64,000 nt of DNA, from the NCBI GenBank assembly GCA_030651475.1, contig JAUSEW010000027.1, forward strand, positions 41,553-105,552, written 5' to 3'. Source of the DNA: Candidatus Levyibacteriota bacterium. GTDB lineage: Bacteria > Patescibacteriota > Microgenomatia > Levybacterales > UBA12049. The position numbers and the translations under genes were made by a program. This document shows positions 14,439 through 42,879 of the stretch, in pieces (position 1 is the first letter of the stretch; every line of letters begins with the position of its first letter). A model generated the notes under the pieces. That model saw only the letters and a list, made by a program, of their open reading frames with translations, was not told the origin of the DNA and did no database searches.

Positions 14439-14441
14439 ATT

Positions 14442-23068: not shown

Positions 23069-23827
23069 ATGAAGACTACTATCAAAAGCCCAAAAGTAAT
23101 CGGGATTATCTTGACATACAAACACGCATCTTTTTTGGAAGACCTCTATCACAGTTTACCGGAAGGGGTTTTCGATAGCATCATTGTTTCCAATGACGAG
23201 AGTGGAGATAACATTGGCGTTATTGCCGAAAAGCTTGGTATTCCATATTTTTCCCACCCGCGCTTAGGATACGGAGGTAACATTAAATATGGATTACAAA
23301 AAGCTCTTGAAATGGGTGGGGAATATATGGTGGAAATCCACGGAGACGGACAGTATGGTACTTTGGGTATCATCCCGGGAATTCAAAAAATGAAAAAAGG
23401 TTATGATTTTATCTTAGGTTCGAGATTTACAGATTTAAATCTTCCCTTAAAAGATAAAATGCCGTTTCTTAAGTATTTGGCGAATATCGGCTTGAGTTTT
23501 CTTGATCGTCTAATCCTGCGGTTGCCGCTTTCCGAATTCCACACAGGCTTTCGCATCTACAGCCGGCGGCTTTTGACCAAAGCTGACTTAAAACATACAT
23601 CCAATGATCACTTATTTAGTTTTCAGATAATCGCTCTTGCCGCATACCATAATTTAAAAGTAGGGGAGATTCCTGTGAGAGGTGATTATGCTCACGAACA
23701 TAGTTCGATTAGCATTAGGGAGTCTGTTAAATATACCTTTCAGACATTTGACGTTTTAGCGCAGTATCTTTGGACTCGTTTGGGATTTGAGACCAAGCTT
23801 TTTAAACGTAGCAAACACTCTATATAA
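23069..23827 (+). CDS. Glycosyltransferase, GT2 family (DPM1-like)
   Basis: IGIILTYKHASF...SNDESGDN...GSRF...TGFRIY motifs. Confidence 0.7.
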   Translation: MKTTIKSPKVIGIILTYKHASFLEDLYHSLPEGVFDSIIVSNDESGDNIGVIAEKLGIPYFSHPRLGYGGNIKYGLQKALEMGGEYMVEIHGDGQYGTLGIIPGIQKMKKGYDFILGSRFTDLNLPLKDKMPFLKYLANIGLSFLDRLILRLPLSEFHTGFRIYSRRLLTKADLKHTSNDHLFSFQIIALAAYHNLKVGEIPVRGDYAHEHSSISIRESVKYTFQTFDVLAQYLWTRLGFETKLFKRSKHSI

Positions 23828-25055
23828 TTGTTACCTTCGGAATCGGCACTATAAATTTAACGTTTTTGTTTTTTAGCCACGACTCATTTTTCATAATTGA
23901 GGAAGCGTAATTCCATGCCAAAATTAAAACATAATCGGGAAGATTTTTTTTGATGTGTTCAGGCGGTAATATAGGAATGTGTGTGCCTGGAGTAAATTTT
24001 CCCTGTTTAAATGCGGTCGTGTCTGCAATATAGTCAATTATCTCTGTTCCAATCCCGCAATATTGAAGTAAGGTATTGCCCTTGGCAGCTGCGCCATAAC
24101 CTACTATTTTTTTATTTTGTTTTTTTAGACCGATCAACAGTTTCAATAGTTTTTTCTTGATTTTTTGCGGAACAGTGCCGAACTTCTTGTATGTCTTAAG
24201 ATTATGGAGGCCGTTTTCTTCTTCAAGGTTTTGCATTTTCAGGACTCTTTTGTTAACAGGGAACAATAAGGGCTTATGTCCGGCGAATACGCGTATAGAT
24301 CCGCCTTGAGTATCAACACGCTCAACATCAAATATTTGTAATCCCCAGATATCCAAAAGCTTTACCAAGGGGAAAAGTGAAAAATAACAGATATGCTCAT
24401 GGTAGGTGTTATCGAATTCATTTTTCTTAATTAAATCGCCTAAATATTGCACTTCGAATATAAAAATGCCTTTTTCGTCAAGCAATTTTTTCACGCCTGC
24501 AATTATTCCATGCAAGTTGTTTGTATGGGCTAGAATATTATTGGCGGTGATTATACCGGCATGACCGTATTCTTTCACAATATTTTTGGCAACGTTTAGA
24601 TTAAAAAACAGAGCTTTGGTTTCAATACCATTTCTTCTGGCTATTCTAGCAACATTTTTTGCCGGATCAACGCCTAATACCTTAGCGCCTAATTTTTGAA
24701 AATGCTTAAGAAGTATGCCGTCATTGCTGCCAATATCCAGAATGAACTGTTTTGTTTGGGTAGGAAATTTTCTGTAAACATCTTCAGCGTACTTTCTAAA
24801 ATGCTCATGTAACGGTTGTGATGCCCCGGTAAAATAAGCATAGTCTTCAAACAGCATTTTCCTATCGACCCAATCTTTAAGCTGCGCCAGATGACACGCT
24901 GGGCAATAATAAACCCGTAGCGGGAATTTAAGCTCCGGGCGTTTTAGACCCGCCTTATTTAGGCAAGAATTGGCAAGCGCGATTTTACCAAGATCCAAGT
25001 ATTTAATAAGACGTGGATTACTACAGATAATACATTTTTTATTCTTCTTAAGCAT
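23820..25055 (-). CDS. Zinc-ribbon SAM-dependent C-methyltransferase, TylC3/NDP-hexose C-methyltransferase-like (three-domain architecture)
   Basis: N-terminal CIICSN...CPACH zinc ribbon. Central ILDIGSNDGILL motif I. About 150 aa C-terminal extension as in the C-methyltransferase C-terminal domain family. Confidence 0.6.
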   Translation of the reverse strand: MLKKNKKCIICSNPRLIKYLDLGKIALANSCLNKAGLKRPELKFPLRVYYCPACHLAQLKDWVDRKMLFEDYAYFTGASQPLHEHFRKYAEDVYRKFPTQTKQFILDIGSNDGILLKHFQKLGAKVLGVDPAKNVARIARRNGIETKALFFNLNVAKNIVKEYGHAGIITANNILAHTNNLHGIIAGVKKLLDEKGIFIFEVQYLGDLIKKNEFDNTYHEHICYFSLFPLVKLLDIWGLQIFDVERVDTQGGSIRVFAGHKPLLFPVNKRVLKMQNLEEENGLHNLKTYKKFGTVPQKIKKKLLKLLIGLKKQNKKIVGYGAAAKGNTLLQYCGIGTEIIDYIADTTAFKQGKFTPGTHIPILPPEHIKKNLPDYVLILAWNYASSIMKNESWLKNKNVKFIVPIPKVTII

Positions 25056-25108: not shown

Positions 25109-26740
25109 CTAGTTGGGGTATATAATTTTATATAATTGCTCATCTTGTTCCCCGTTAATTAATTTAAGTCCGGGATAATCTTTGGGGTTAGTTGAAAGAA
25201 ATAAAACAGCAGGATGCAATTCGCCTGGAGTTGCAATAATGTAGTCGGCTTTTTGCAAATGAGCATAAGTCAATAATTCGTTTAAATCCGAAACAACAGG
25301 CGTATATATAATAAGACTTTTGCTGTAAAAGCCATATGCTTCATGCTTTGACATAAGTCTTTTCCCTGGATCATTTTTCATTAACCATTCATCCTGACTA
25401 ATAATGGTAGATTTTTTAATTGATGTATTTTTTATCTCCTTTAGGATCGATGGCGTGTAAAAAGCATTTGATGATAAAAACACAATAAAAAACAATATTA
25501 GACTTACAATATTAAATTTCATTATTTTTTTTTGTATGTAAGACAACTTGATTGATCCAAAAGCTATGCCTAAAGGTATAAGCGGGTATAGCCAGTATAT
25601 ATATCTTTCATCCCCATTGGGAGCAAAAAACATGACAATTTCAAAGAAAATCAAAGGAACCAGGAATAGAAATGTAAATGTATTATAATCGCGAGTTTTA
25701 AAAAGCATCCATATCGCTCCAAAGAAAAAGGCAAGCATGCCAACCGCAGAAAAGTTTTTATATAGATAGGTTTGTGAGAAATAGTCGAATCTGGTATTGG
25801 CATCTCGGAACCACGCTTCATGAGTTTTTGTTAAAATAGAGAAAAATCCTTTGCCAAATTCAGATTTGACATTAAATGTCTCTGTGCTAAAAAAATCCTG
25901 CGCCCAAGTAGAAGTTTTTGCAGTATTAAAATTAAAAGGACTGTGTAGTTGTGCAGCCGCAGACGCTTTTGCGAGAGGAACAGATTGTTTATATTTATTT
26001 TGCATTGCTATTTGATAAGGTAAATATATAATGGAAAATCCTAAAAGTATAAAAATAGAGATTAAGGCAATTTGTTTATGTAATACCTTATTTTTTAGAA
26101 AGAAAAATACAAGATACATTGCTGATGTGAAAAGAAAACTCGTAAATATAAAAATCCCTTCAGCTTTAGTAAGCGCTGCAAAGCTTAAAAATATTCCGGA
26201 AAAGAAAGCAAAAATATTTCTTTTTGTTTGAAAGCACTTTAAATATAAATAAATCCCCATCCATATTAGAAAAACAAGTAATGCTTCCGTAAGTGCTTGG
26301 GTAGAACTATACGCAAGAGATTTAAAGAATATGACAAAAAAGCATATTAAGATTGTGGTAATTCGGCCAAAATAAACCCTTGAGATTAGATATATTGGTA
26401 GAATAAGTAGAGATCCAAAAACCAAAGATACAATTCGACCAGTCAATCCCCAATCCTGTACAAAGAAATGGAAAAGAGCAGATACTATTGGGAAAAACGG
26501 ACTCCACCACGGATGAAAAATTTTTGCAAAATCCCCATCAAGCAAGCTTCTTGCAATGTCCATATAGATAGCATCATCGGAATATAAACCGTAGGATGGT
26601 TGGCTAAAGAGCACAATATACCTAACACTGAAGCTAAGGAAAACAAGAAATAACAAAAGCAATAAGTCAAAATTAAGAAAAATCTTCTTTGATAAAAATT
26701 TGAGAATATGACTTATGCTATTAATTATCTTAATTAACAT
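25109..26740 (-). CDS. GT-C membrane glycosyltransferase, PMT/ArnT-like (GT39/GT83-like)
   Basis: LYSDDAIYMDIARSLLDG DD motif after TM1. Multi-TM N-terminal half and a C-terminal soluble domain. Confidence 0.55.
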   Translation of the reverse strand: MLIKIINSISHILKFLSKKIFLNFDLLLLLFLVFLSFSVRYIVLFSQPSYGLYSDDAIYMDIARSLLDGDFAKIFHPWWSPFFPIVSALFHFFVQDWGLTGRIVSLVFGSLLILPIYLISRVYFGRITTILICFFVIFFKSLAYSSTQALTEALLVFLIWMGIYLYLKCFQTKRNIFAFFSGIFLSFAALTKAEGIFIFTSFLFTSAMYLVFFFLKNKVLHKQIALISIFILLGFSIIYLPYQIAMQNKYKQSVPLAKASAAAQLHSPFNFNTAKTSTWAQDFFSTETFNVKSEFGKGFFSILTKTHEAWFRDANTRFDYFSQTYLYKNFSAVGMLAFFFGAIWMLFKTRDYNTFTFLFLVPLIFFEIVMFFAPNGDERYIYWLYPLIPLGIAFGSIKLSYIQKKIMKFNIVSLILFFIVFLSSNAFYTPSILKEIKNTSIKKSTIISQDEWLMKNDPGKRLMSKHEAYGFYSKSLIIYTPVVSDLNELLTYAHLQKADYIIATPGELHPAVLFLSTNPKDYPGLKLINGEQDEQLYKIIYPN

Positions 26741-26848: not shown

Positions 26849-27679
26849 ATGAAAAATATTTTAGTTTCTGCAATTATATCAACGAAGAATGAAGAATCTG
26901 TTATCGAAAAACTTCTTTTAAGCTTGAAAAGGCAAGCATATAAATTTGTTGAAATTATTGTAGTTGATAATAATTCTTCGGATAAGACAAAGATTATCTC
27001 GAAAAAATACGCAGATTTTGTATTTAATAAAGGTCCGGAAAGAAGCGCTCAAAGAAACTTCGGCGCGCAAAAAGGTAAGGGAGAATATTTATTGTTTTTG
27101 GACGCGGATATGGAGTTAACGCCGACAGTAATCGAAGAATGCGTTAAAATAGCTCAAAGTTCATCTTTTGGGGGAGTAATTATTCCGGAAGAATCATTTG
27201 GGAAAGGTTTTTGGGCGAAGGTTAAGGCTTTTGAACGCAGCTTTTATGTAGGAGATACTGCTATGGAAGCAGCGCGTTTTTATTCAAAAAAAGTTTTTAA
27301 TGAATTAGGAAAATTTGACGAAACCATTACGGGGCCAGAAGATTGGGATCTGTCAGACAGAGTAAGTAAAAAGTTTGATATTGGAAGAATAAAAAGTTTC
27401 ATATTGCATAACGAAGGAACGTTGTCCTTATGGAAACTTTTGAAAAAAAAATATTACTATGCAAAAGGAGCAAGAAACTATATATCCAAGAATAAAATTA
27501 GCACTTTTTCTCCAAAGACGATATCCTTTTTAAGGTCGTCATTCTATAGAAATCCCGAAAAGATTATATTTCATCCTATTCTATTTTGTGCTATGATGGT
27601 AATGCTTTTTGCAGAGCTAGTTGCCGGTGGAATCGGTTATTGTAGCACTGCATTTTTTGGTAAAAAAAACAACTTATGA
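26849..27679 (+). CDS. Glycosyltransferase, GT2 family
   Basis: VSAIISTKNEES...EIIVVDNNSSDKT...FLDADMEL motifs. Confidence 0.7.
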   Translation: MKNILVSAIISTKNEESVIEKLLLSLKRQAYKFVEIIVVDNNSSDKTKIISKKYADFVFNKGPERSAQRNFGAQKGKGEYLLFLDADMELTPTVIEECVKIAQSSSFGGVIIPEESFGKGFWAKVKAFERSFYVGDTAMEAARFYSKKVFNELGKFDETITGPEDWDLSDRVSKKFDIGRIKSFILHNEGTLSLWKLLKKKYYYAKGARNYISKNKISTFSPKTISFLRSSFYRNPEKIIFHPILFCAMMVMLFAELVAGGIGYCSTAFFGKKNNL

Positions 27680-28665
27680 AAAAAATCTTAGTAACTGGCG
27701 GAGCAGGCTATATAGGTTCCGTATTGACTGCAGATTTACTGGATAAGGGATTTAAAGTTAGAGTATTTGATAGATTTATGTTTGGGGGAGAAAGTCTGCT
27801 TTCTTTCGTAAACAACAAGAATCTCGAGATTTTGAAGGGAGACGTGAGGGATAGCGATAGGCTTAAAATTGCAGTTAACGGTGTAGATAGCATAATTCAT
27901 TTAGCTGCATTGGTCGGGGAACCTGCCTGCAGGGAAAATCCAAAGGTTACGAAAGAAATTAACCATAAAGCAGCAGGGGAATTAGCGAGTCTTGCTAGAG
28001 AAAACGGCGTAGAACGCTTCATTTTCGTATCCACATGCAGTAATTATGGAATTTCTAAAGCAAATGAAAAGGCTACGGAAGAATCGGAGCTTAACCCGCT
28101 TTCTTTATACGCGGAGACAAAAATTGAAGCGGAGAAGTTTATTTTAGGGTTAACTTCTGATAATTTTCATCCAACCGTTCTTAGACTTGCTACCATATTC
28201 GGATTATCTCCAAGAATGAGATTTAATCTAATGGTAAATGAAGTAGCAAGAGAGACTGCAGTGAGTGGTAAATTTTCCATATATAATAAAAACGCGTGGA
28301 GGCCATTTCTTCACGTCCAAGATGTAAGCAATGCATTCCTAACGGTTTTACAGTCAAGTAATAATCAAATAAGTGGGAAGATTTTTAATGTTGTCGGAGA
28401 GAATATCCAAAAGGCTTATCTTATAGAACTTGCCAAGAAATTTAATCCGCAGTTTGAGATTGAAGTAAATGAAAGCGGGAAAGACGACAAGAGGGACTAT
28501 AGAGTATCAGCAAATAAAATTATGGATAAACTAGGCTGGAAACCAAGAATAACTGTTAAGGATGGATTTTTGGAAATATTTAATGCCGTAAGAAATGGTT
28601 TATTTTTAGATCCGTATGAGTTCAGATATAATGCTTGGTTTGATAATAAAGTATTTAAAAGATGA
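27676..28665 (+). CDS. NAD-dependent sugar-nucleotide epimerase/dehydratase (extended SDR)
   Basis: ILVTGGAGYIGSVL and YAETK motifs. Confidence 0.75.
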   Translation: MKKILVTGGAGYIGSVLTADLLDKGFKVRVFDRFMFGGESLLSFVNNKNLEILKGDVRDSDRLKIAVNGVDSIIHLAALVGEPACRENPKVTKEINHKAAGELASLARENGVERFIFVSTCSNYGISKANEKATEESELNPLSLYAETKIEAEKFILGLTSDNFHPTVLRLATIFGLSPRMRFNLMVNEVARETAVSGKFSIYNKNAWRPFLHVQDVSNAFLTVLQSSNNQISGKIFNVVGENIQKAYLIELAKKFNPQFEIEVNESGKDDKRDYRVSANKIMDKLGWKPRITVKDGFLEIFNAVRNGLFLDPYEFRYNAWFDNKVFKR

Positions 28666-29390
28666 AAAATATTATCGAAAAATTAAAGATTTACGGTCCC
28701 AAAACTTTTTTTTCATTCGCTATAAGCGAATTAAGAAATAAATTATTAATGCAATTAATAAAAGGATCTTATAGCCAGAAGGGCGAAGATTTGATAATCG
28801 ATAAGCTTCTCGAAAATAAAAAAAGAGGTTTCTATGTAGACGTAGGAGCTTATGATCCGAAACGCTTTAGCAATACCTATCGTTTTTACCAAAAGGGATG
28901 GCGCGGAATAAATATAGAACCAGATACACTTAATTACGAAAAGTTTTTAGCTGAAAGGAATAGAGATACAAATCTTAATATTGGAGTGGGAAATGGGGAA
29001 TCGAGTTTGGTTTTTTATAAATTTGTTCCGGATACGCTTTCTACATTTTCGAAAAAAGAGGCAGGGGAGTACAAAAAACAAGGATACAGATTGGTAGACA
29101 CAATAAAAGTTAAAATAGAGAGTCTTTCTAGTATATTTTCAAAATATTGCAAAAACAAAAAGATTGATTTTATTTCTGTGGATACAGAGGGTTATGATTT
29201 GGAAGTGCTTAAAAGCAACGATTGGGATAAATTTAGGCCGACTCTAATATGTGTCGAATCATTTGAACACCATAAAGGCGGGGGAAAAGCTATAGAATAC
29301 GATTACATAGAGCCTTTTTTGTCTAAAGTTGGATATAAGAAAGTTTTTGAAAACGGACTAAACTGTATCTACACGCTTAAAAGCGTTTAA
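28662..29390 (+). CDS. FkbM-family methyltransferase
   Basis: FYVDVGAYDPKRFSNTYRF (DVGAxxG-type) motif typical of FkbM methyltransferases. Confidence 0.65.
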   Translation: MKNIIEKLKIYGPKTFFSFAISELRNKLLMQLIKGSYSQKGEDLIIDKLLENKKRGFYVDVGAYDPKRFSNTYRFYQKGWRGINIEPDTLNYEKFLAERNRDTNLNIGVGNGESSLVFYKFVPDTLSTFSKKEAGEYKKQGYRLVDTIKVKIESLSSIFSKYCKNKKIDFISVDTEGYDLEVLKSNDWDKFRPTLICVESFEHHKGGGKAIEYDYIEPFLSKVGYKKVFENGLNCIYTLKSV

Positions 29391-29393
29391 TGT

Positions 29394-30476
29394 ATGAAGA
29401 TTATTAGACAGATGGATCCCTGGATTGACAGGGAAGAAGAAAAAGAAGTAATTAAGGTGATGCGATCCGGATGGATAACTGAGGCTGACGAGACAAAAAG
29501 ATTTGAAAAGATGATCGCAGATTTTACAGGGAGTAAGTATTGTTCTGTCGTAACTAATGGAACCGTAAGTCTCTATCTCGCACTTAAAGCATTAGGAATT
29601 GGGGAGGGGGATGAGGTCATCGTGCCGGACATGACAATGGTAGCTTCTCCAAATGCGGTTATTATGGCGAATGCAAAACCTGTTTTTGTAGACATTGAGA
29701 AAGACACATTATGTCTTTCCTTAGATGAGGTTGAAAAAAAGATTTCTAAAAAAACTAAAGCAATTATGATTGTTGCTCTTAACGGTAGAGCGCCTGATAT
29801 GCATAGAGCTCTTAAAATCGCAAAAGACAATAATCTATTTGTTGTTGAGGATGCAGCGCAAGCTCTTGGCTCTTACTTTCATGGAAAACATTTGGGAACG
29901 TTTGGGGATATCGGAAGTTTCTCATTCAGTACCCCAAAAGTGATTACAACAGCCCAAGGAGGAGCGCTTGTTACCGACAGAAAAGACCTTTACGATAAGA
30001 TAATCCGACTGAAAGATTTTGGGAGAGTTAATAGATCATCCCAAAATCACGATGAAATTGGTTTTAATTTTAAGTTTACAGATATTCTCGCAGCAATAGG
30101 AGTCGTACAGATGAAAAAGCTGCCAACGAGGCTTAATAGAAAAAAAGAGATGTACAATAGCTACAAGCAAGAGCTTAAGAATCTAAAGCAAATACAATTT
30201 ATAGCTACAGATCTTTCTCAAACATCTCCTTGGTTTATGGATATTTTTGTTTCCGATCCAAAGGCTCTTCAAGGTTTTCTGAAAAACAAAAATATAGGAA
30301 CCAGACTTTTTTATCCTGCTATTCATACAACCGAACCGTATAAATCAGAAAATCAATATAAAAATTCTTTATGGGCATCGGAGCATGGATTATGGCTTCC
30401 ATCATCAGCTTTCTTAACAGATTCTGATATAATGCATATCTGCAAAGAAATAAAAAGTTTTTATGAAAAAAACTGA
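29394..30476 (+). CDS. DegT/DnrJ/EryC1-family PLP-dependent sugar aminotransferase
   Basis: SFSFSTPKVITTAQGGALVT with Lys present. N-terminal small-domain motifs. Confidence 0.8.
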   Translation: MKIIRQMDPWIDREEEKEVIKVMRSGWITEADETKRFEKMIADFTGSKYCSVVTNGTVSLYLALKALGIGEGDEVIVPDMTMVASPNAVIMANAKPVFVDIEKDTLCLSLDEVEKKISKKTKAIMIVALNGRAPDMHRALKIAKDNNLFVVEDAAQALGSYFHGKHLGTFGDIGSFSFSTPKVITTAQGGALVTDRKDLYDKIIRLKDFGRVNRSSQNHDEIGFNFKFTDILAAIGVVQMKKLPTRLNRKKEMYNSYKQELKNLKQIQFIATDLSQTSPWFMDIFVSDPKALQGFLKNKNIGTRLFYPAIHTTEPYKSENQYKNSLWASEHGLWLPSSAFLTDSDIMHICKEIKSFYEKN

Positions 30477-31545
30477 ACAAGATATCAAAAAAATTCTTAA
30501 CAACAGAACAGTTCTTATAACAGGAGCAGATGGTTTTGTTGCCTCACATCTGACGGAAAAGTTAGTGGAGTACGGATCGAATGTTCACATATTAATTCGA
30601 GCAACTTCTTCCGGAATGCTGCATAATCTTCCCCATCTCAGGGGGAAAATGGTTGTTCATCATGGAGACTTAACAGACAAGCAGGCAATAAAGGAAGTAT
30701 TGAAGATAATAAAAAACGAGGGACCAAAACCGATCATATTTCACTTAGGGGCGCAGGCCCATGTTGGCGAATCTTGGAAAAGATCGTATGAGACATTTAA
30801 CACAAATGCTCTTGGAACATTAAATCTTTTGCAAACAATTGTCGATTTAGATATTGATCTATTTAAGTTGGATACGGCTGGAACCTCTGAAGAATATGGC
30901 AATGTAAATCCTGAAGTTAAAGATCAATACAGATTTGATAAAAATGGTGGTCTTATCTTGGATGAGAAATCACCTTTAAATCCACAGAGTATCTATGCCA
31001 CATCCAAAGTAGCGGCAGATTTTCTAACTCGAAATTTTTATGGTGGATATGGAATTCCTACAGTCGTAACAAGAATGTTCAATAACTATGGTCCTAGACA
31101 GAATCCAAGATTTATAACTGGAACAATCATAACGCAAGCTTTAGATAAGGATTCAGTTGAATTGGGTACTCTAACCCCAAAAAGAGATTTTTGCTTTGTA
31201 GAGGATGGAGCGATGGGACATATAAATGTTGCGCTTTTTGGTAATCCTGGAGAAGTGTATGTTTATGGTTATGGAGAAACGATCTCAATTGGAGATTGGT
31301 ACAACCTGATTATAGAGGTGGGGCGTGAAGAAGGATATTGGAAAGACAAAAAATTAATAAATCGAGCAAGCGGAAAAAGAGGTAGGCTTGGGAAAAGCGA
31401 AGTTGAAGAATTGAGAGTTGACTATACGAAATTAAATAAGCTTACGGGTTGGACTCCAAAATTTTCATGGAAAGAAGGACTTGCAGAAACCATCAAATGG
31501 TATGCTGAAAATAAGGATAAGTGGATAGGGAGGATAGATTGGTAA
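30463..31545 (+). CDS. Gmd-like NDP-hexose 4,6-dehydratase (GDP-mannose 4,6-dehydratase family)
   Basis: Matches remembered E. coli Gmd along its length: VLITGADGFVASHL, IRATSSG, HHGDLTD, HLGAQAHV, TSEEYG, YATSKV...FNNYGPRQ. Contains an unusual ~40 aa insertion. Confidence 0.6.
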   Translation: MKKTEQDIKKILNNRTVLITGADGFVASHLTEKLVEYGSNVHILIRATSSGMLHNLPHLRGKMVVHHGDLTDKQAIKEVLKIIKNEGPKPIIFHLGAQAHVGESWKRSYETFNTNALGTLNLLQTIVDLDIDLFKLDTAGTSEEYGNVNPEVKDQYRFDKNGGLILDEKSPLNPQSIYATSKVAADFLTRNFYGGYGIPTVVTRMFNNYGPRQNPRFITGTIITQALDKDSVELGTLTPKRDFCFVEDGAMGHINVALFGNPGEVYVYGYGETISIGDWYNLIIEVGREEGYWKDKKLINRASGKRGRLGKSEVEELRVDYTKLNKLTGWTPKFSWKEGLAETIKWYAENKDKWIGRIDW

Positions 31546-31546
31546 A

Positions 31547-32479
31547 ATGATTAATGTTGGATTTTGGAAAAACAAAAAGATTCTCGTAACAGGCGGGAAA
31601 GGGTTTGTTGGTAGTCACGTAATTGATAATCTTATAAAAAAGCGTAAAGTTAATCCCTCTGATATCGTGGTTCCGGACAGTAGTAAATTTGACCTTCGTT
31701 TATTTGATAGCGCAAAAAGAGTTGTTAGGGGAATTGACATAGTGTTGCATCTTGCTGCTGACGTTGGAGGTATTGGATACAGCAGCAGTCATCCTGCGAC
31801 CCAAATGAGGAATTGTTTTTTGATGGATGCGAATATATTTGAAGCCGCAGCGAAAGAAAAAGTGCAAAAGTTCGTTTGCGTATCTTCTGCGGTAGCGTAT
31901 CCTGTTGATGCCATATCACCTCTTAATGAAAAAGATTTATTCAAAGGTGAGCCGGCTAAAGGTGGATATGGCTACGGTTTTGCTAAAAGGATGTCAGTTG
32001 TTATGACTAGGGCTTATAAGGAAGAAAAAGGATTAAATGCCTGCGTTTTGCTTTCAGCAAATAGTTATGGACCAAGACAGGATTTTGATTTGGAAAGCGG
32101 TCATGTTATACCTTCATTAATACGGAAATGCTTTACGTTTGAAAGGCTTGAGGTTTGGGGAGACGGAAGTCAAATTAGAGATTTTTTCTACGTCAAAGAT
32201 TTCGCAGAGGGTATTGTCTTAGCAGCTGAAAAACTCGAAGGTTCGGAACCCGTGAATATAGGTTCAGGATCAGGAACAAGCATAAAAGAACTAGTAAAAT
32301 TGATTGTTAGACTAACGGGTTTTAAAGATGAAGTATATTTTGATACAACAAAACCACAAGGGCAAAAAATAAGGGTTGTAGATATTAATAGGGCACGAAA
32401 ATTAATGGGTTTTAAACCCAAATACTCGTTAGAAAAAGGTCTTTTAGAAACGATTAGTTGGTACAAAAAGAGTTTATGA
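31547..32479 (+). CDS. GDP-4-keto-6-deoxymannose 3,5-epimerase/4-reductase family (GDP-L-fucose synthase Fcl/ColC-like)
   Basis: Collinear with remembered E. coli Fcl: [31 protein letters not shown] (cf. [24 protein letters not shown]), [24 protein letters not shown]. Confidence 0.7.
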
Positions 32480-33036
32480 ATATTGTTAGCATTTATTACA
32501 AGCTTAGCGCTCTGCTTGGTAATTTTAAAAAATTACTTTTCATTAATAGCTATCAGGCCGGCAAAAATTTTAAACTGGGTTTTAGCGGAGGAATAATAGG
32601 GGATAAAGAGAAGATAATTATTGGCAATAATGTAGGTTTATCGGGTTGGTTAATAAGCGACGGAGGAAAAATTATAGTAGGAGATAATACGATAATAAAT
32701 AAAAATACCATTATAAGATCAATGAGGTTGGTCAAAATTGGAAAATATTGTGATATTGCCAGTGATTGTGCGATTCAGGATCACAACAGCAGATCCTTAG
32801 ATTATAGGGAGAGGAGAAAATATATGCTGACTGGTAATTTCGACGAGAAAGTTTTAAACTCTCCCGTTATTATAGGAGATGACGTCTGGATTGGTCGTAG
32901 GGTAACTATTCTGAAGGGAGTTACCGTAGGAAATGGAGCAATTTTAGCAACAAATGCTGTTGTTACGAAAGATGTTCCTTCATTATCTATCGTCGCCGGC
33001 AATCCCGCTAAAATAGTTAAGAAACTAGATTATTAA
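32476..33036 (+). CDS. Hexapeptide-repeat (left-handed beta-helix) acetyltransferase
   Basis: [37 protein letters not shown] hexapeptide repeats. The start is set at the ATGA overlap (32476); an in-frame upstream ATG at 32458 overlaps the previous gene by 22 nt. Confidence 0.7.
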
Positions 33037-34062: not shown

Positions 34063-35274
34063 ATGCTTAAAAGCAATCAGGGAACAATAAATAAAAAAAT
34101 ATTGTATGCAGAGGCAGTATATGGAGATGAAGAAAAACAGGCGGTAATGCGTTCAATGGACAACAAATGGTTGGCTTCAGGTCCTTTGGTTAAAGAATTC
34201 GAAGAAAAGGTAGCTAAACTTTTTGGGAAAAAATATGGAATTGCCGTAAATTCCGGTTCTTCGGCAGATCTTCTTGCGATTCAAAGTCTCCGTCTTCCGA
34301 AAGGCGCTGAAGTAATTACTCCGGCGTGCACATTTTCAACTACTGTTTCCTCCATTGTTCACAATAATCTAGTCCCTGTTTTTATAGATACTGTGATTGG
34401 CAGATATACCATTAATGAAGATTTGGTAGAAAAAGCTATTACAAAAAAAACCAAAATTATTTTTGTTCCTCAATTAGTTGGTGGCGTTTGCGATATGGCT
34501 AGGCTTAGAAAAATAGCTAACAAACATAATCTTATTTTAATAGACGATTCTTGTGATACATTCGCTCCTTATTTTAATTCCAAAACTGCGGCTTCATATA
34601 GCGATTTAACAACGACCTCATTCTATGGATCACACATAATTACGGCTCTTGGATTTGGCGGAATGGTTTTGGTCGATGACGAAAAACTAAGGGACAGAAT
34701 TTATACTCTTCGTGATTGGGGTAGAGTAGGAAACGATAAAGAAGCATTCGAAAATAGATTTAATTTTTCTATAGACGAAATTCCATATGATGCAAAATTT
34801 CTTTATTCGGAGCTTGGATATAACTTAAAAATGAATGAGGCAGCTGCGGCATTTGGTCTTGTGCAGTTAAGAAGGTTGGATGGTTTTCTAAAGAAACGTA
34901 CCTATAACTTTAAAAAACTTAAAAAATTCTTTAGTAAATATGAGAAGTGGTTTGTTCTTCCTTATCTTCTGGAAGGAGCGCAAACAAATTGGCTTGCTTT
35001 TCCTTTGACGGTTAAAAAAGATGCGCCTTTTTCCCGTTATGATTTTTTGAAACATATGGAATCTAAAGGGATTCAAACAAGAGTACTTTTTTCAGGAAAT
35101 ATCGTTAGGCACCCGGTCTATAAAGATATTAAATTTAAGGTTAGTGGATCGTTAAAAAATGCAGATACCATTATGGCATCCTCTTTATTATTGGGTTGCC
35201 ATCAAGCTCTTACAGACACAGACATAGATTACATTGCCAAATCTGCAGACGAATTCTTCAAGAGATATGCTTAA
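34063..35274 (+). CDS. DegT-family PLP/PMP enzyme with His replacing the active-site Lys: candidate NDP-4-keto-6-deoxyhexose 3-dehydratase (ColD/E1-like)
   Basis: Aligns with the DegT fold but reads SFYGSHIITALGFGG where the paralogs have SFxxxK. His-for-Lys is the known hallmark of ColD and E1 dehydratases. Confidence 0.55.
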   Translation: MLKSNQGTINKKILYAEAVYGDEEKQAVMRSMDNKWLASGPLVKEFEEKVAKLFGKKYGIAVNSGSSADLLAIQSLRLPKGAEVITPACTFSTTVSSIVHNNLVPVFIDTVIGRYTINEDLVEKAITKKTKIIFVPQLVGGVCDMARLRKIANKHNLILIDDSCDTFAPYFNSKTAASYSDLTTTSFYGSHIITALGFGGMVLVDDEKLRDRIYTLRDWGRVGNDKEAFENRFNFSIDEIPYDAKFLYSELGYNLKMNEAAAAFGLVQLRRLDGFLKKRTYNFKKLKKFFSKYEKWFVLPYLLEGAQTNWLAFPLTVKKDAPFSRYDFLKHMESKGIQTRVLFSGNIVRHPVYKDIKFKVSGSLKNADTIMASSLLLGCHQALTDTDIDYIAKSADEFFKRYA

Positions 35275-40231: not shown

Positions 40232-40870
40232 TCATCTCCTCACCCCTTTTTTATTATAATTATCTATATCGGCTTGTTTAAAAAATTTAACTCCCACATA
40301 ATATTTATTACCTTTATCTACAAAATAACCATAGGAGCGATCTTTAAAAGTACAAGCCCGTAATCTGTATATGGTCTCCTTATCAAATTCCTGAAAGCTA
40401 GTTATTTCTTTTTTCCAATGATAAGTACCTTTTCCAATCTGTGGCTTACTCTCGATTTTACCCATCTTAATTTTTGGCCAGACATCAATGAATAATTTAA
40501 ACATTTCTTTATTGATTCTCTCTTCCAGGTCGCTTGCTATATCCGTAGGATAAACCTTGACCTCCTTTTGGGCGATAACTTCTCCTTTGTCAACCTGTTC
40601 ATTCACATAATGGATTGTTACCCCCGCTGGTGTACCGTCAATTAAAGGCCAAATATGAGTATGCACACCCCTATTGTATGGGAGATAGCCTGGGTGCAGA
40701 TTTATTGTTGGTACCCTTAACTGATCTTTGGTTAATATTTTATCGTAGTATGCCACGATACGAAAATCAGGATCTTTACTGACAATAGTTTCTCCCTGTT
40801 GTTTTAAATAATCTTTAACCTGCTGACCTATTGGTTTGATTGATAAAACTTGAATTTTCATAATGAGCAC
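40232..40870 (-). CDS. Sugar N-formyltransferase (Fmt/PurN/ArnA-N-terminal-domain family)
   Basis: INLHPGYLPYNRGVHTHIWPLIDGTPAGVTIHYVNEQVDKGEVIAQ carries the Asn/His/Asp formyltransferase catalytic signature. No tRNA-binding C-terminal domain (212 aa), as in sugar N-formyltransferases. Confidence 0.7.
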   Translation of the reverse strand: MLIMKIQVLSIKPIGQQVKDYLKQQGETIVSKDPDFRIVAYYDKILTKDQLRVPTINLHPGYLPYNRGVHTHIWPLIDGTPAGVTIHYVNEQVDKGEVIAQKEVKVYPTDIASDLEERINKEMFKLFIDVWPKIKMGKIESKPQIGKGTYHWKKEITSFQEFDKETIYRLRACTFKDRSYGYFVDKGNKYYVGVKFFKQADIDNYNKKGVRR

Positions 40871-41415
40871 AAAATTGATGGTCCCGGTTGGGTCTCTATG
40901 AATTCTAATTTAATACTCCCAAACATCTCCTGAGTATATAGTTTTTTACCTCCCGGAAGATTAACATAGGTATTCCCACTCAATGCTTTTATAATATCTT
41001 TAATTCCATCCACGAATTTACCGTGTGGAATTTCTGATGATAAATAAATAGGCGTCTTAATTTTTAAGACTTGACATATGGCCTTAATAGTTAGATAAAT
41101 ATTATGACTTAATGTATATTTTTGATCCATTATGTCTACAAAAAGGGAATATATATGATAATTAAATCTAGGGGTAAATAGGCGAAACCTTTTTTTATCC
41201 GCCTCAATGTCTTTAAAATAACATTCATTAATTTTGGCATAATCTGAATGTTTTCTTAACCGAAAAGTAAATAGTTTAGGAAAATAATTTCGATTAATCC
41301 AACCGCCTTTTATATATTTAGCGTCATCATATAAAACAAATTTATCAACACTTTTAATGAGCTTAAAAAATCCAGGATACGGAAATAAATAGGGTTGCAT
41401 AACAGCAATTTTCAT
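40858..41415 (-). CDS. WbqC-like family protein (function unknown; recurrently linked to amino-sugar/formyltransferase genes)
   Basis: N-terminus MKIAVMQPYLFPYPGFFKLIKSVDKFVLYDD matches my memory of the WbqC-like family N-terminus. Confidence 0.5.
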   Translation of the reverse strand: MKIAVMQPYLFPYPGFFKLIKSVDKFVLYDDAKYIKGGWINRNYFPKLFTFRLRKHSDYAKINECYFKDIEADKKRFRLFTPRFNYHIYSLFVDIMDQKYTLSHNIYLTIKAICQVLKIKTPIYLSSEIPHGKFVDGIKDIIKALSGNTYVNLPGGKKLYTQEMFGSIKLEFIETQPGPSILCSL

Positions 41416-42077
41416 TATTCACAAACGAAAAAAATACTGGAACATAAATCTGGATATTTCTTGCCCAATTGATAACAACCTTCCATATATTCTGGGGAGA
41501 CAATTTTCCCTAATTGATCTATCTGAAAATTAGCTAAGGCTTTAAAAAAGACCCCTCCTCTATGGACAACCTTCAGTCCTGCTTTTTTAATATCCCGTTC
41601 CATTGTGTCTAACGTATATGTTCTGTAATGCCCATGTTTTATCTCGTCTTTAGTAACTGCTGCATTATGGTCAATTAACCCCATATGAACAGCTATTTGT
41701 CTAGATGGAGCATTGGCGTTGGGACAGGCTATGAATGCTCTGCCTTTGAGATATTCCTTGACTTGTTTTAAAGCCAATACTGCATCCTTAATGTGTTCTA
41801 AGGTATGAACCATCACGATATTATCGTATTTTTCAGGCAATTGAGCCTTTTCAATGGTTGTTTTATAAAACTTAACTTTTACTTCAGGCTCAAATTCAGG
41901 ATCAACGCACGTCACGTTACTAAATCGCATCATCAGTTTTTTAGTCATTACATTTTTCCAACTTCCCACTTCCAATAAATTCCCCTTTTTGAAGAAGGGT
42001 TCGAAAGACCTGATCATATATTCGTGCATCAATGCGTCGAAATTATAGAAGTATAAGCCCGAAACCATATTTCCCAT
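41415..42077 (-). CDS. Class I SAM-dependent methyltransferase
   Basis: GNLLEVGSWKN motif I-like and IVMVHTLEHI motif. Confidence 0.5.
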   Translation of the reverse strand: MGNMVSGLYFYNFDALMHEYMIRSFEPFFKKGNLLEVGSWKNVMTKKLMMRFSNVTCVDPEFEPEVKVKFYKTTIEKAQLPEKYDNIVMVHTLEHIKDAVLALKQVKEYLKGRAFIACPNANAPSRQIAVHMGLIDHNAAVTKDEIKHGHYRTYTLDTMERDIKKAGLKVVHRGGVFFKALANFQIDQLGKIVSPEYMEGCYQLGKKYPDLCSSIFFVCE

Positions 42078-42879
42078 AGGTATTGCCCAAATAAATCATG
42101 TAGTCACCAAACACTGTTGGGTAGTGCTGCATTTCCGAATCCCATCCTTTTTTAGAAAGTGGAATTTTAAAATCAGTCCTAGTCCAGTTTTCTAAGTCAG
42201 TTGAGTATGCGTATCCAATTCTATAGTTGGCCTTATCCCAATCCCTATAAGTAAAATACATGTGGTACTTTCCATCTCTGTAATGGACATCTGGTCCTGC
42301 CTGACACTCGTTTTCTGGTCCTTCAATTAATAGTTTGCCATTAAGAGCAATTTTGTAAACTGGTTTATGGGTGTTTTTGTACTTTAACCACTTTGTACCG
42401 CTTATGTAAAACAAATACCATTTATTATTAAAATGTCTAATCTTTGGTCCACCTTTAAGATATGGCGAATCAATGCTATCTGTTAAAATGGGTCCTTCGC
42501 CAACTTTTGTGAAATGTTCTCCATCTCCTATAGCTTTGCCAATAGCGATGGTAAAAGGGATTGAACCGTGCGGACGTGTCCAACCAGCATAGTACATTAA
42601 ATAATCTTTACCATCTTTGATGACTGACACTGGATAAGTACCATACTCATCAAAGGTTCCAGGCTTACCTAGTGGCAGAAGCGGTCCTTTATTAACCCTT
42701 AGAATCTTCCAATCTTCATCAAAATCAGCATAGCCCGCTACACTTACCGGATCGTTATCTTTTTGGTGTCTGTGGGTAAAATAGACTCTAACAAAACCAT
42801 CCATCTGTATGACAGAAGGGGCTTGAGCATAATCCAAACCATAATCTTGTGGTCTAAAAATTCTCCCTAATTTTTTCAT
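42043..42879 (-). CDS. Five-bladed beta-propeller protein of the GH43/GH32/GH130 superfamily (glycosidase or glycoside-phosphorylase-like)
   Basis: FRPQDY...APSVIQMDGFVRVYFTHR and repeated aromatic/Gly-rich blade-like segments (YLMYYAGW, WYLFYISG, YHMYFTY). The family assignment is tentative. Confidence 0.4.
   Translation of the reverse strand: MKKLGRIFRPQDYGLDYAQAPSVIQMDGFVRVYFTHRHQKDNDPVSVAGYADFDEDWKILRVNKGPLLPLGKPGTFDEYGTYPVSVIKDGKDYLMYYAGWTRPHGSIPFTIAIGKAIGDGEHFTKVGEGPILTDSIDSPYLKGGPKIRHFNNKWYLFYISGTKWLKYKNTHKPVYKIALNGKLLIEGPENECQAGPDVHYRDGKYHMYFTYRDWDKANYRIGYAYSTDLENWTRTDFKIPLSKKGWDSEMQHYPTVFGDYMIYLGNTYGKYGFGLILL

Follow-up and report, generated by a model that had tools for sequence, protein, structure and literature searches.

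The genes at positions 29394-33036 are the four at the 3' end of an operon of seven (26849-33036), which belongs to a 64-kb island for glycan biosynthesis in a Candidatus Levybacteria genome (candidate phyla radiation, CPR), the whole analysed 64-kb stretch being called here the window, and the product of this operon is most likely a 4-amino-4,6-dideoxy sugar. The explanation that we favour combines a predicted dehydratase of a sister family of LegB, a DegT-family enzyme that would aminate C4, an Fcl-like SDR lacking a key cysteine, and accessory LbH and FkbM genes; taken as a whole, it has in our judgement about an even chance of being correct.

Gene content and layout of the operon

The last four ORFs are all present on the + strand and, given their Pfam matches (from 1e-101 for DegT to 5e-12 for Hexapep), are genuine genes rather than chance ORFs. 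The operon comprises, in order:

26849..27679, + strand: GT2 glycosyltransferase, 276 aa, hydrophobic C-terminus (Pfam PF00535, 86 bits); first gene
27676..28665, + strand: SDR, 329 aa (PDB 6vo6, 216 bits, E 6e-63)
28662..29390, + strand: FkbM-family methyltransferase, 242 aa (Pfam PF05050, 93.5 bits)
29394..30476, + strand: DegT/DnrJ/EryC1-family PLP aminotransferase, 360 aa (Pfam PF01041, DegT_DnrJ_EryC1, 341 bits, E 1e-101)
30463..31545, + strand: extended SDR, predicted nucleotide-sugar 4,6-dehydratase, 360 aa (Pfam PF16363, 207 bits; GDP_Man_Dehyd 8e-61, Epimerase 2e-43)
31547..32479, + strand: Fcl-related SDR, 310 aa (Pfam Epimerase, E 4e-47)
32476..33036, + strand: left-handed beta-helix (LbH) acyltransferase, 186 aa from ATG 32476 (Pfam Hexapep, E 5e-12)

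The translational coupling proposed in the sequence-only reading is directly visible at the junctions: the dehydratase ATG (30463) and the DegT stop (30474-30476) lie in a 14-nt overlap, 1 nt separates the dehydratase TAA from the Fcl-like ATG (31547), and the Fcl-like TGA (32477-32479) overlaps the ATG at 32476 in an ATGA. Further upstream, 3 nt separate the FkbM stop from the DegT ATG. The mechanically called LbH ORF spans 32458-33036 from a TTG (192 aa), and the start is most likely the ATG at 32476 rather than this TTG. The gene preceding GT2 (25109-26740) is on the opposite strand. The same reading had named a PLP-Lys aminotransferase, a 4,6-dehydratase-type SDR, an Fcl-related SDR and an LbH acyltransferase, and these gene kinds agree with both Pfam and residues. 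None of the block's enzymes attains the curated cut-off of any named NCBIfam family, so that all functional labels are given by analogy.

The GT2 protein, which may be a polyprenyl-phosphate sugar transferase, keeps its position upstream of the module in the CPR loci L004-L006, L008, L009, L012 and L019. The FkbM methyltransferase is a variable accessory tailoring gene, inserted between the 329-aa SDR and DegT; beyond the window it is seen only in L005 and L008, the closest relatives. At NCBI, the 310-aa SDR of the window has one match at 100% identity, and Levyibacteriota/Patescibacteria genomes hold dehydratases at 93-96% identity to the 360-aa SDR.

The dehydratase and the aminotransferase

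Sequence comparison places the 360-aa SDR in a large, uncharacterised family that is sister to LegB (GDP-GlcNAc 4,6-dehydratase) and numbers 7243 proteins at E<=1e-20. The NCBIfam scores, all under their cut-offs, are 184 bits for LegB, 142 for RmlB, 106 for Gmd and 83 for CDP-glucose dehydratase, and the BLAST identities are 36.6% to C. jejuni LegB, 26.8% to E. coli RfbB and 26.3% to E. coli Gmd. The protein carries the fingerprint [ST]SE...YxxxK (T141-S142-E143, Y178, K182) and the cofactor motif R46-x-T-S-S, and G[ST]SEE[YF]G is found in 203 of 204 family members. The [ST]SE motif is shared with Rmd reductases, and UDP-xylose synthases have it too. Since the [ST]SE and YxxxK motifs are invariant and match the GMD row of a published table (PMC8987622), the 360-aa SDR is predicted to be a nucleotide-sugar 4,6-dehydratase of the GMD/LegB mechanistic type (single-Glu, [ST]SE). 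In this scheme, [ST]SE...Yx3K is the GMD-type fingerprint, [ST]DE belongs to dTDP/UDP-Glc and retaining UDP-GlcNAc dehydratases, and [ST]DK to the CDP-Glc, PglF and PseB types (Table 1 of PMC8987622).

The label "Gmd-like" therefore stands for the fingerprint, which is neither [ST]DE nor [ST]DK, but not for the family: identity as Gmd itself is rejected, as its TIGR01472 score (106 bits) stays well under the cut-off (415) and LegB and RmlB both score higher. The best PDB match is a dTDP-glucose 4,6-dehydratase (8du1, 114 bits), followed by Rmd (2pk3, 107) and, at 86 bits, the best Gmd; together with the NCBIfam and BLAST results above, this counts in part against the Gmd assignment. An insertion of about 40 aa relative to E. 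coli Gmd had also been described; it shrinks to about 13 residues (152-164, VKDQYRFDKNGGL), about 15 being unmatched in LegB, and this loop is conserved throughout the family, whereas the wider stretch 128-174 includes the conserved catalytic GTSEEYG motif.

The adjoining DegT protein is predicted to aminate C4 of a nucleotide-linked 4-keto sugar. The Schiff-base (PLP) lysine K182 is present and is retained in all 24 orthologues drawn from related loci. Its best NCBIfam model is the LegC family (267 bits, cut-off 420), its identity to Rhizobium LegC is 32%, and its best PDB matches are a "sugar aminotransferase" (7b0m, 201 bits) and then GDP-perosamine synthase (3bn1/3dr4, about 183 bits). Moreover, orthologues at 48-70% identity adjoin the dehydratase in 20 related loci.

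The closest known system is LegB/LegC of the legionaminic acid pathway (C. jejuni, T. forsythia), in which, as in the window, the dehydratase and aminotransferase genes adjoin and overlap. The 360-aa SDR has LegB as its nearest characterised relative and shares with it the motifs TGADGFxGSHL, TSE, NxYGPRQ and ITQ, and LegB and LegC are the top NCBIfam models for the two proteins. However, the scores fall well under the cut-offs (184 vs 475 and 267 vs 420), and the 360-aa SDR is extended at its N-terminus, has an extra loop of 15 aa (152-164 region) and carries WIGRxDW at its C-terminus, with RxTSS instead of the LegB cofactor motif QYNSF. Furthermore, the NeuB, NeuC, LegF and PtmE cassette of Leg clusters was not found in the window, while Leg clusters are without the Fcl-like partner that is obligatory in the module type of the window.

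The Fcl-like partner and the loss of its cysteine

The 310-aa SDR keeps S114, Y143, K147 and H186, equivalent to Fcl S107, Y136, K140 and H179, but has V116 where Fcl has Cys109. Its identity to E. coli Fcl is 29%, its best PDB matches are GDP-L-fucose synthases (136 bits), and the NCBIfam GDP-L-fucose synthase model gives 199.6 bits (cut-off 500). In GDP-fucose synthase, Cys109 and His179 make up the epimerase dyad; its homologues DdahC and MlghC, which lack the cysteine, carry out only reduction (PMC7949155). With Val116 replacing this epimerisation base, Fcl/ColC chemistry (3,5- or 5-epimerisation plus reduction) is not expected, and the 3,5-epimerase/4-reductase or ColC role that had been assigned to the protein is unsupported. 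Instead, it may reduce the keto group at C4, or else serve as a remodelled epimerase or as a partner protein.

An Fcl-like homologue, co-directional with the dehydratase and at most 4.5 kb from it, is present in 73 of 80 genome loci, and the pairing of the two SDRs spans CPR, Chloroflexota, Acidobacteriota, Methylomirabilota, Actinomycetota and Halobacteria. DegT adjoins the pair in none of the 48 loci whose partner keeps Cys109, and in 20 of the 22 whose partner lacks it (Fisher p ~1e-15, a statistic that ignores shared ancestry). In those 48 loci, among the homologues of the window block that were looked for, the dehydratase is paired only with its canonical Fcl-like partner, as would be expected if dehydratase and epimerase/reductase together made up a complete pathway. 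The window has the SVYKH motif class; in sister lineages (NLIKH, CPFKH and AVFKH classes) Tyr136 and Ser107 are gone from the partner as well, and three AVFKH loci are without DegT. As the Ser-Tyr-Lys triad is kept in the window, the reductase and the aminotransferase may simply compete for one 4-keto sugar.

A different arrangement is suggested by the 329-aa SDR, which gives 216 bits to 6vo6 (next match 111 bits) and shows, as judged by eye, some 45% identity to 6vo6/6vo8, structures that we take to be Cj1427 of C. jejuni. Cj1427 is a GDP-D-glycero-D-manno-heptose C4-dehydrogenase (PMC10680097). This SDR could thus, in place of the dehydratase, be the keto-sugar source of DegT, upstream of which it directly lies in eight of nine CPR-type module loci (six of the seven window-type SVYKH loci and both CPF/LKH loci). 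Two routes would then run side by side: in one, C4 of a GDP-sugar would be oxidised by the 329-aa SDR and aminated by DegT, giving a 4-amino-4-deoxy sugar with its C6 hydroxyl kept; in the other, the 360-aa dehydratase and the Cys-less reductase would make an unepimerised 6-deoxy sugar, for example of D-rhamnose, 6-deoxy-talose or 6-deoxy-heptose type. The reductase role rests here on the kept Ser-Tyr-Lys and on analogy with DdahC and MlghC.

The capsular GDP-heptose modification toolkit of C. jejuni offers a precedent, with a C4-dehydrogenase (Cj1427), a 4,6-dehydratase (DdahA), a C3-dehydratase (HS:5) and Fcl-like C4-reductases (DdahC, MlghC, Cj1428) (PMC10680097). Its Fcl-like SDRs are Cys-less and only reduce (PMC7949155), and the window shares with it the Cj1427-like SDR, a His-type 3-dehydratase 1 kb downstream of the operon and an RmlC-like cupin, which lies elsewhere in the window. 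By contrast, no heptose-synthesis genes were found in the 64-kb window, the GDP-heptose dehydratase 7us5 gives only 59 bits against the 360-aa SDR, and none of the C. jejuni heptose-modification enzymes is given as an aminotransferase (PMC10680097). Against two separate routes, ten NLIKH loci have an orthologous DegT (48-56% identity), the dehydratase and a redox-dead partner without the 329-aa SDR, so that there DegT must use the dehydratase product; moreover, the CPR sister lineages that have this SDR (CPF/LKH) lost Tyr136 of the partner, which misfits a conserved reductase role. We consider two routes unlikely, and still the likeliest of the alternatives to the favoured explanation.

Sugar precursor, nucleotide and tailoring

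The sequence-only reading had proposed one pool of GDP-4-keto-6-deoxymannose, made from GDP-mannose by Gmd and split three ways: to fucose by Fcl, to N-acyl-perosamine by a Per-type DegT with a PerB-type LbH or the 40232 formyltransferase, and to colitose by ColD (34063) and ColC. Gmd and Fcl of the E. coli colanic acid cluster do resemble the window pair in their adjoining genes, in the [ST]SE...Yx3K fingerprint and Arg/Ser-Ser cofactor motif (Arg-x-Thr-Ser-Ser against RRASS of Gmd) and in the Ser/Tyr/Lys and His179 of Fcl, whose full catalytic set recurs in the partner of the 48 DegT-less relatives. The perosamine pathway (Gmd, Per, PerB/WbkC) likewise joins a 4,6-dehydratase to a Lys-type C4 aminotransferase, and among PDB relatives of DegT with a named function the Caulobacter perosamine synthetase ranks first (183 bits); for the 310-aa SDR, GDP-fucose synthases are the best relatives. 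In addition, the His-type PLP/PMP 3-dehydratase at 34063 is, like ColD, without the Fe-S cysteines of E1, and 40232 encodes a sugar N-formyltransferase domain.

Nonetheless, the dehydratase and its partner remain far from Gmd (26% identity, 106 vs 415) and Fcl (29%, 199.6 vs 500), several PDB dTDP-glucose dehydratases also scoring above Gmd, and with Val for Cys109 neither fucose nor colitose epimerisation is expected. The 34063 enzyme gives 288 bits to the CDP-type E1 against 174 to ColD, and the formyltransferase belongs to a separate, opposite-strand operon 7 kb away. The LbH protein, expected to N-acetylate perosamine as PerB does, belongs by its matches to the WbbJ / maltose-galactoside / Vat O-acetyltransferase type rather than to PerB/PglD/NeuD: WbbJ is its best NCBIfam model (98.9 bits, cut-off 243; 38% identity to E. 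coli WbbJ), NeuD/PglB/VioB reaches 50 (cut-off 160.8) over the C-terminal repeats only, and in the PDB maltose transacetylase, Vat and polysialic acid O-acetyltransferase exceed VioB and QdtC (36-40 bits). It is accessory to the module, a homologue lying downstream only in L008 and L025 of the related loci compared. A search for manB, manC, gmm or any nucleotidyltransferase found none in the 64-kb window. Finally, DegT, embedded in the pair, co-occurs only with Cys-less partners, a pattern unexpected for three independent branches and favouring a co-evolved module. The split pool is thus quite improbable, the least probable of the readings considered, and mannose as the substrate sugar is unsupported.

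A GDP-linked substrate is plausible by analogy, because every one of the enzymes has GDP-sugar enzymes as its nearest characterised relatives; the matches of DegT, the 310-aa SDR and the 329-aa SDR named above all hint at GDP. LegB and LegC are GDP-specific, LegB accepting only GDP-GlcNAc among five nucleotide-GlcNAc substrates (PMC5378307). GDP-heptose genes occur in three related loci; within the AVFKH class, L092 carries all four (GmhA, HddA, GmhB, HddC) in the same cluster, and L091 and L093 a nucleotidyltransferase-phosphatase fusion. A dTDP-/UDP-glucose or UDP-GlcNAc substrate, leading to a viosamine-, bacillosamine- or 4-amino-quinovose-type sugar and a 6-deoxyhexose, would suit the best PDB match of the dehydratase, the TIGR01181 score above that of the Gmd model, and the UDP-GlcNAc that CPR bacteria must make for peptidoglycan. 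In several haloarchaeal loci, moreover, the dehydratase pair adjoins RfbA/GalF-like glucose-1-phosphate nucleotidyltransferases (up to 38% identity to E. coli RfbA), so that different members of the family may use different nucleotides. Such a substrate is nevertheless doubtful for the window, since it sits poorly with [ST]SE, rather than [ST]DE or [ST]DK, in 203 of 204 members, with the choice made by LegB and with the GDP-heptose genes.

In the favoured pathway, the 360-aa SDR would convert a nucleotide-linked hexose, HexNAc or heptose, the nucleotide probably being GDP, into a 4-keto-6-deoxy sugar, which the Lys-type DegT would aminate at C4 to the 4-amino-4,6-dideoxy sugar. The 310-aa SDR would act either as a plain C4 ketoreductase, yielding a parallel 6-deoxy sugar, or as a remodelled non-reducing epimerase or partner protein between dehydratase and aminotransferase, and the WbbJ-like LbH acetyltransferase and the FkbM methyltransferase would provide accessory tailoring. 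The operon is of an ordinary type, and its core module, biochemically uncharacterised, is widely distributed.

Layout of the operon and of the surrounding island

The 64-kb window is a glycan-biosynthesis island (GC about 34%) in which Pfam searches found more than 20 glycosyltransferases, five PMT/PMT_2 membrane proteins, four DegT-family genes, a C-methyltransferase, a carbamoyltransferase and a PglF-like dehydratase, while tRNA and Rfam scans of the whole window gave no match. The four genes at issue exist as ORFs on the + strand, and Pfam, with a strong match for each, agreed with the sequence-only reading on the kinds of gene:

29394-30476, + strand: DegT aminotransferase (Pfam DegT_DnrJ_EryC1, E 1e-101)
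30463-31545, + strand: 360-aa SDR (Pfam GDP_Man_Dehyd, 8e-61; Epimerase, 2e-43)
31547-32479, + strand: 310-aa SDR (Pfam Epimerase, 4e-47)
32458-33036 as ORF, + strand: LbH protein (Pfam Hexapep, 5e-12)

They are the 3'-terminal members of a seven-gene co-directional run (26849-33036), whose first three genes are a GT2, a 329-aa SDR and an FkbM methyltransferase; the gene before the run is divergent, and a convergent gene follows 8 nt after its end. Read in the sequence, the junctions are a 3-nt gap between FkbM and DegT, a 14-nt overlap between DegT and the 360-aa SDR (the dehydratase), a 1-nt gap between the latter and the 310-aa SDR, and an ATGA stop/start overlap at 32476-32479, which makes ATG 32476, rather than TTG 32458, the likely start of the acetyltransferase. 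These overlapping or abutting stops and starts on one strand bear out, as far as the junctions indicate, the translational coupling proposed for the block. Between 26600 and 34100, scanning for promoters and terminators turned up no more of them than shuffled sequence does (23 vs 25.7; 5 vs 4.2), and no transcription signals are therefore claimed.

Other features of the island are:

52-933: YfhO-like protein
1932-3103 and 3060-4010, - strand: split transketolase-like (ThDP) pair, adjoining an SDR
9690-11876, 16097-18343, 25109-26740 and 59867-61339: PMT/PMT_2 proteins (ArnT/PMT-like GT-C)
13032-15494, + strand: PglF/CapD-like dehydratase (Polysacc_synt_2, 371 bits), then directly a DegT (319 bits)
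23820-25055, - strand: NDP-hexose C-methyltransferase (PF08421 zinc domain, methyltransferase domain, PF08484)
26849-27679: GT2
34063-35274, + strand: PMP-dependent sugar 3-dehydratase, E1/ColD type, His191 at the PLP-lysine position (SFYGSH)
40232-43835, - strand: separate operon of a DegT (319 aa), an unknown 278-aa protein, a methyltransferase, a WbqC-like protein and a sugar N-formyltransferase
46713-50111, 50482-52401 and 56712-59870, + strand: large ORFs (1132, 639 and 1052 aa) with no Pfam match at E<=1e-5

The PglF/CapD-like dehydratase and its DegT neighbour are predicted to be an independent bacillosamine-type UDP-GlcNAc route within the same island. The 34063-35274 protein matches CDP-type E1 (288 bits) better than ColD (174 bits) and the RfbH HMM at 373 bits (cut-off 423); the cysteine-rich segment of E1 (DCYCAPGCDNTC) is absent from it, which makes an Fe-S cluster unlikely and a ColD-like mode of action possible. 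The formyltransferase ORF at 40232 (212 aa, GTG start) aligns with the Pfam model from position 70 onwards only and thus looks N-terminally short, or its start is mis-set. Taken together, the GT-C proteins and the small GT2 suggest, by analogy, an ArnC/ArnT-like logic, in which a sugar would pass to polyprenyl phosphate and from there to an extracytoplasmic acceptor. One PMT-like gene adjoins a DUF5667 gene (15513-16100), an arrangement also present in the Gottesmanbacteria locus L004. The SDR beside the ThDP pair (PF16363, 165 bits) is 31% identical to Campylobacter jejuni LegB, and these three genes may provide a route to a branched-chain or two-carbon-extended sugar. The C-methyltransferase is 95% conserved in locus L008 (a contig considered below) and recurs near Fcl-like genes in loci L089 and L090.

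The dehydratase and its neighbours in the operon

The 360-aa SDR had been taken for a Gmd, to which its closest similarity does not lie. It reached no curated family threshold, with NCBIfam scores of 184 bits for LegB TIGR04180 (cut-off 475), 142 for RmlB (365), 106.1 for Gmd TIGR01472 (415) and 83 for CDP-glucose dehydratase (278). The best PDB matches were the dTDP-glucose 4,6-dehydratase 8du1 (114 bits) and then the GDP-sugar reductase Rmd 2pk3 (107 bits), Gmd entries giving at most 86 bits; by BLAST, C. jejuni LegB (36.6% identity, 177 bits) preceded Escherichia coli RfbB (26.8%, 110 bits) and Gmd (26.3%, 95 bits). These scores make the protein a sister of LegB. Membership of LegB itself is not indicated: the score stays well under the LegB cut-off, and Pfam found no NeuB, NeuC or cytidylyltransferase in the window, whereas the Rhizobium leg cluster has a NeuB/NeuC/CMP-transferase-type cassette.

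The catalytic motif is present as T141-S142-E143 ... Y178-x3-K182 ([ST]SE...Yx3K), and G[ST]SEE[YF]G is kept in 203 of 204 members of the dehydratase family, that is, the homologues of this protein. The [ST]SE triplet is the fingerprint of GDP-mannose dehydratases, with a single-Glu mechanism (PMC8987622, Table 1), while [ST]DE marks the dTDP/UDP-glucose and retaining UDP-GlcNAc enzymes and [ST]DK the CDP-glucose, PglF and PseB types (PMC8987622). Since TSE is shared with LegB in the alignment and [ST]SE is found also in Rmd, the motif is not exclusive to Gmd; LegB enzymes, for their part, accept only GDP-GlcNAc (PMC5378307). The sequence-only reading had named best matches to dTDP- or CDP-glucose dehydratases as evidence against a Gmd; this is what raw scores give, but on mechanism, that is, by [ST]SE, the protein parts from those enzymes. 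A CDP-glucose route was considered and rejected, the fingerprint being [ST]SE and not [ST]DK and the CDP-glucose dehydratase HMM scoring lowest. A fair description from the sequence would be a GMD/LegB-type 4,6-dehydratase, with no substrate assigned. The insertion of about 40 aa reported relative to Gmd disappears on alignment: the stretch contains the catalytic GTSEEYG, and only residues 152-164 are unmatched in Gmd. This loop is conserved across the dehydratase family. Relative to LegB, about 15 residues of the stretch are unmatched. An exact-sequence look-up of the window's protein found no database record.

In the DegT protein the PLP lysine is K182, in FSFSTPK (the SFxxxK position), which aligns with the lysine of PDB 7b0m and is kept in 24 of 24 orthologues. 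Its best model is the LegC family (TIGR04181, 267 bits against a cut-off of 420; 32% identity to a Rhizobium LegC); 7b0m leads its PDB matches, with GDP-perosamine synthase next. The best family for the LbH protein is WbbJ (98.9 bits, cut-off 243; 38% identity to E. coli WbbJ), and its top PDB matches are maltose transacetylase, Vat and a polysialic acid O-acetyltransferase; the acceptor atom may be O or N. The PerB-type acetyltransferase proposed earlier finds no backing in TIGR03570 (PerB/PglD/NeuD), which gives 50 bits against 160.8 and covers only the C-terminal repeats (residues 132-185), or in VioB, QdtC and WlbB, which give 30-40 bits in the PDB search. The protein is probably not a PerB analogue. 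As a homologue follows the module in only two other loci, it is seen as an accessory tailoring gene.

Two genes upstream of DegT, the 329-aa SDR scores 216 bits against PDB 6vo6/6vo8, which we take to be Cj1427, the GDP-heptose C4-dehydrogenase. On the strength of this likeness a two-route model is possible, in which the 329-aa SDR, by analogy, would be a second source of 4-keto sugar for DegT besides the dehydratase. The function of Cj1427 is described in PMC10680097, and a literature search on the PDB codes 7B0M, 6VO6 and 6VO8 returned nothing relevant.

The Fcl-like partner and its association with DegT

The closest relatives of the 310-aa SDR are GDP-fucose synthases (136 bits in the PDB; 29% identity to E. 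coli Fcl). Aligned to the E. coli enzyme, it keeps the redox triad (S114/Y143/K147 for Fcl S107/Y136/K140) and H179 (as H186), and carries Val116 in place of Cys109, a Val common to the 67 sequences of its motif class. Both epimerisations of GDP-fucose synthase, at C3 and C5, use Cys109 and His179 as their acid/base dyad, and the C. jejuni enzymes DdahC and MlghC, which are without that Cys, are reductases with no epimerase activity (PMC7949155). Considering these Cys-less precedents, the Fcl/ColC-type epimerase/reductase chemistry ascribed to the protein is not expected, and the GDP-L-fucose synthase model NF047922 likewise gives 199.6 bits against a cut-off of 500. With the Ser-Tyr-Lys triad retained in the window, the cautious interpretation is a plain C4 reductase.

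The dehydratase family comprises 7243 proteins at E<=1e-20; members across phyla are 57-96% identical to the window's protein, those of Levyibacteriota and Patescibacteria genomes 93-96%, and the 310-aa SDR has a 100% identical NCBI counterpart in a Candidatus Levybacteria genome. Among 80 genome loci from CPR, Chloroflexota, Acidobacteriota, Methylomirabilota, Omnitrophota, Actinomycetota (Gaiellales) and Halobacteria, a 310-aa SDR homologue (the partner) is co-directional with the dehydratase and within 4.5 kb of it in 73, and three of the other seven are contig ends. The pair is thus a conserved unit, which DegT joins in a subset of loci only. Automated annotation labels the family "GDP-mannose 4,6-dehydratase" or "dTDP-glucose 4,6-dehydratase", neither of which is justified, and no characterised member was found among these thousands of proteins from bacteria and haloarchaea.

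Thirteen loci from Halobacteria (L027, L030, L031, L035, L040, L043, L044, L048, L049, L053, L058, L083 and L086) have the dehydratase, 58-62% identical to that of the window, with a canonical Fcl-like partner and no DegT; two enzymes may suffice there to make a 6-deoxy-L-hexose for archaeal glycans, by a route that is as yet unstudied. In the RefSeq annotation of the L086 plasmid the dehydratase is called 'GDP-mannose 4,6-dehydratase', and the gene table of the Haloarcula plasmid is incomplete, which makes its gene context uninformative. Two contigs labelled 'uncultured Gammaproteobacteria' also carry the genes. L008 (CAYPUE010000001.1) has the same gene string as the window at 70-95% protein identity, with a DegT only 53% identical to the window's against 83-90% for its neighbours and an aldo/keto reductase gene (11132-12106) between the dehydratase and Fcl-like genes; L013 (CAZTEW010000007.1) has the string 329-aa SDR, DegT, dehydratase, 310-aa SDR at 59-69% identity. 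The likeness of L008 suggests mis-binning or mislabelling, transfer being less likely; for L013 the case is less compelling.

Partners were classed by their residues at Fcl positions 107/109/136/140/179 and scored for an adjacent DegT orthologue.

Residue classes of the Fcl-like partner and adjacent DegT
T/S-C-Y-K-H (canonical): 48 loci, DegT in 0
N-L-I-K-H: 10 loci, DegT in 10
S-V-Y-K-H (window type): 7 loci, DegT in 7, of which 6 also with the 329-aa SDR
C-P-F/L-K-H: 2 loci, DegT in 2
C-V-Y-K-H: 1 locus, DegT in 1
S-T-Y-K/R-H: 2 loci, DegT in 0

The association between Cys loss and DegT has a p of about 1e-15 by Fisher's exact test, uncorrected for shared ancestry. In a neighbour-joining tree the Cys-less classes nest inside the canonical one, Tyr136 having been lost at least three times. 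The sister classes NLIKH, CPFKH and AVFKH have lost the redox triad; every partner class retains the GxxGxxG cofactor motif, and Cys-less classes have gained a Tyr at position 134 or a His at 133. Five further loci were sampled independently of the table. Two have a canonical partner with neither DegT nor dehydratase nearby, and three metagenome contigs (L091, L092 and L093) have an A-V-F-K-H partner beside the dehydratase, with no DegT. These AVFKH partners have lost Ser107, Cys109 and Tyr136 and have a Tyr two residues earlier. The partner lies between the dehydratase and another SDR in L091 and L093, whose clusters hold a nucleotidyltransferase-phosphatase (GmhB-HddC-type) fusion; in L092 another SDR is just upstream of the dehydratase, and all four GDP-D-glycero-D-manno-heptose genes, GmhA, HddA, GmhB and HddC, are in the cluster.

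We interpret this pattern to mean that the partner derived from Fcl gives up its epimerase/reductase role when an aminotransferase or a second SDR takes over the 4-keto group. A further step, which we consider rather improbable, would make the 310-aa SDR and its relatives a new functional class, descended from GDP-fucose synthase, that no longer reduces the 4-keto group. Such proteins would be non-reducing epimerases or obligate partner subunits of the LegB-like dehydratase, and a reconfigured 4-keto-6-deoxy sugar would pass to the aminotransferase or to a separate reductase. Behind this proposal stand the active-site changes, namely the loss of Cys109, the repeated loss of Tyr136 and Ser107, and the new Tyr134 or His133.

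Substrate and standing among known systems

No NTP_transferase, phosphomannomutase or heptose-synthesis gene was found in the 64-kb window, either by Pfam on the ORFs scanned or by six-frame tblastn, in which ManC, ManB, RfbA, GalF and HddC queries had no match; tblastn of the window-type CPR loci likewise found no nucleotidyltransferase, phosphomannomutase or heptose gene. Clustering of the neighbours in about 80 loci revealed no conserved nucleotidyltransferase, only glycosyltransferases, a sugar transferase and unannotated ORFs. In locus L018 the gene right after the pair encodes a nucleotidyltransferase that has a C-terminal beta-helix domain, and tblastn placed RfbA/GalF-like genes scattered near the pair in several haloarchaea. 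The GDP-linked substrate assumed by the earlier reading is plausible, and we lean somewhat towards GDP as the substrate nucleotide, on account of the [ST]SE fingerprint, the nearest characterised relatives (LegB, LegC, Per, Fcl and Cj1427), the GDP-heptose genes of three related loci and the L018 nucleotidyltransferase; the haloarchaeal RfbA/GalF-like genes argue against GDP as a general rule. Mannose as the sugar has no specific support, and the division of one GDP-4-keto-6-deoxymannose pool among three products is judged wrong.

By analogy, the operon would work like the known dehydratase/aminotransferase routes LegB-LegC and Gmd-Per, and it resembles the GDP-heptose toolkit of C. jejuni, but by curated thresholds or defining residues it belongs to none of the three. 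As a genome feature it is ordinary, one more sugar-nucleotide operon and no new kind of system. What sets it apart, judging from the sequences, is its dehydratase, from an uncharacterised LegB-sister family, together with a partner derived from Fcl that lacks the Cys, in some classes the Tyr as well, and goes with an aminotransferase. The link between Cys loss and the aminotransferase is a testable rule for which operons make amino sugars and which 6-deoxy sugars, and it points to an Fcl-derived protein of uncharacterised chemistry, so that the operon is a reasonable target for enzymology. If the partner were indeed a new functional class, CPR bacteria, Chloroflexota, Acidobacteriota and Methylomirabilota would share an as yet undescribed way of making 4-amino-4,6-dideoxy sugars, whose configuration might be L or 3-epi. 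To our knowledge, the surface glycans of CPR bacteria are essentially unstudied, and for these organisms the operon offers a defined set of enzymes to express and assay.
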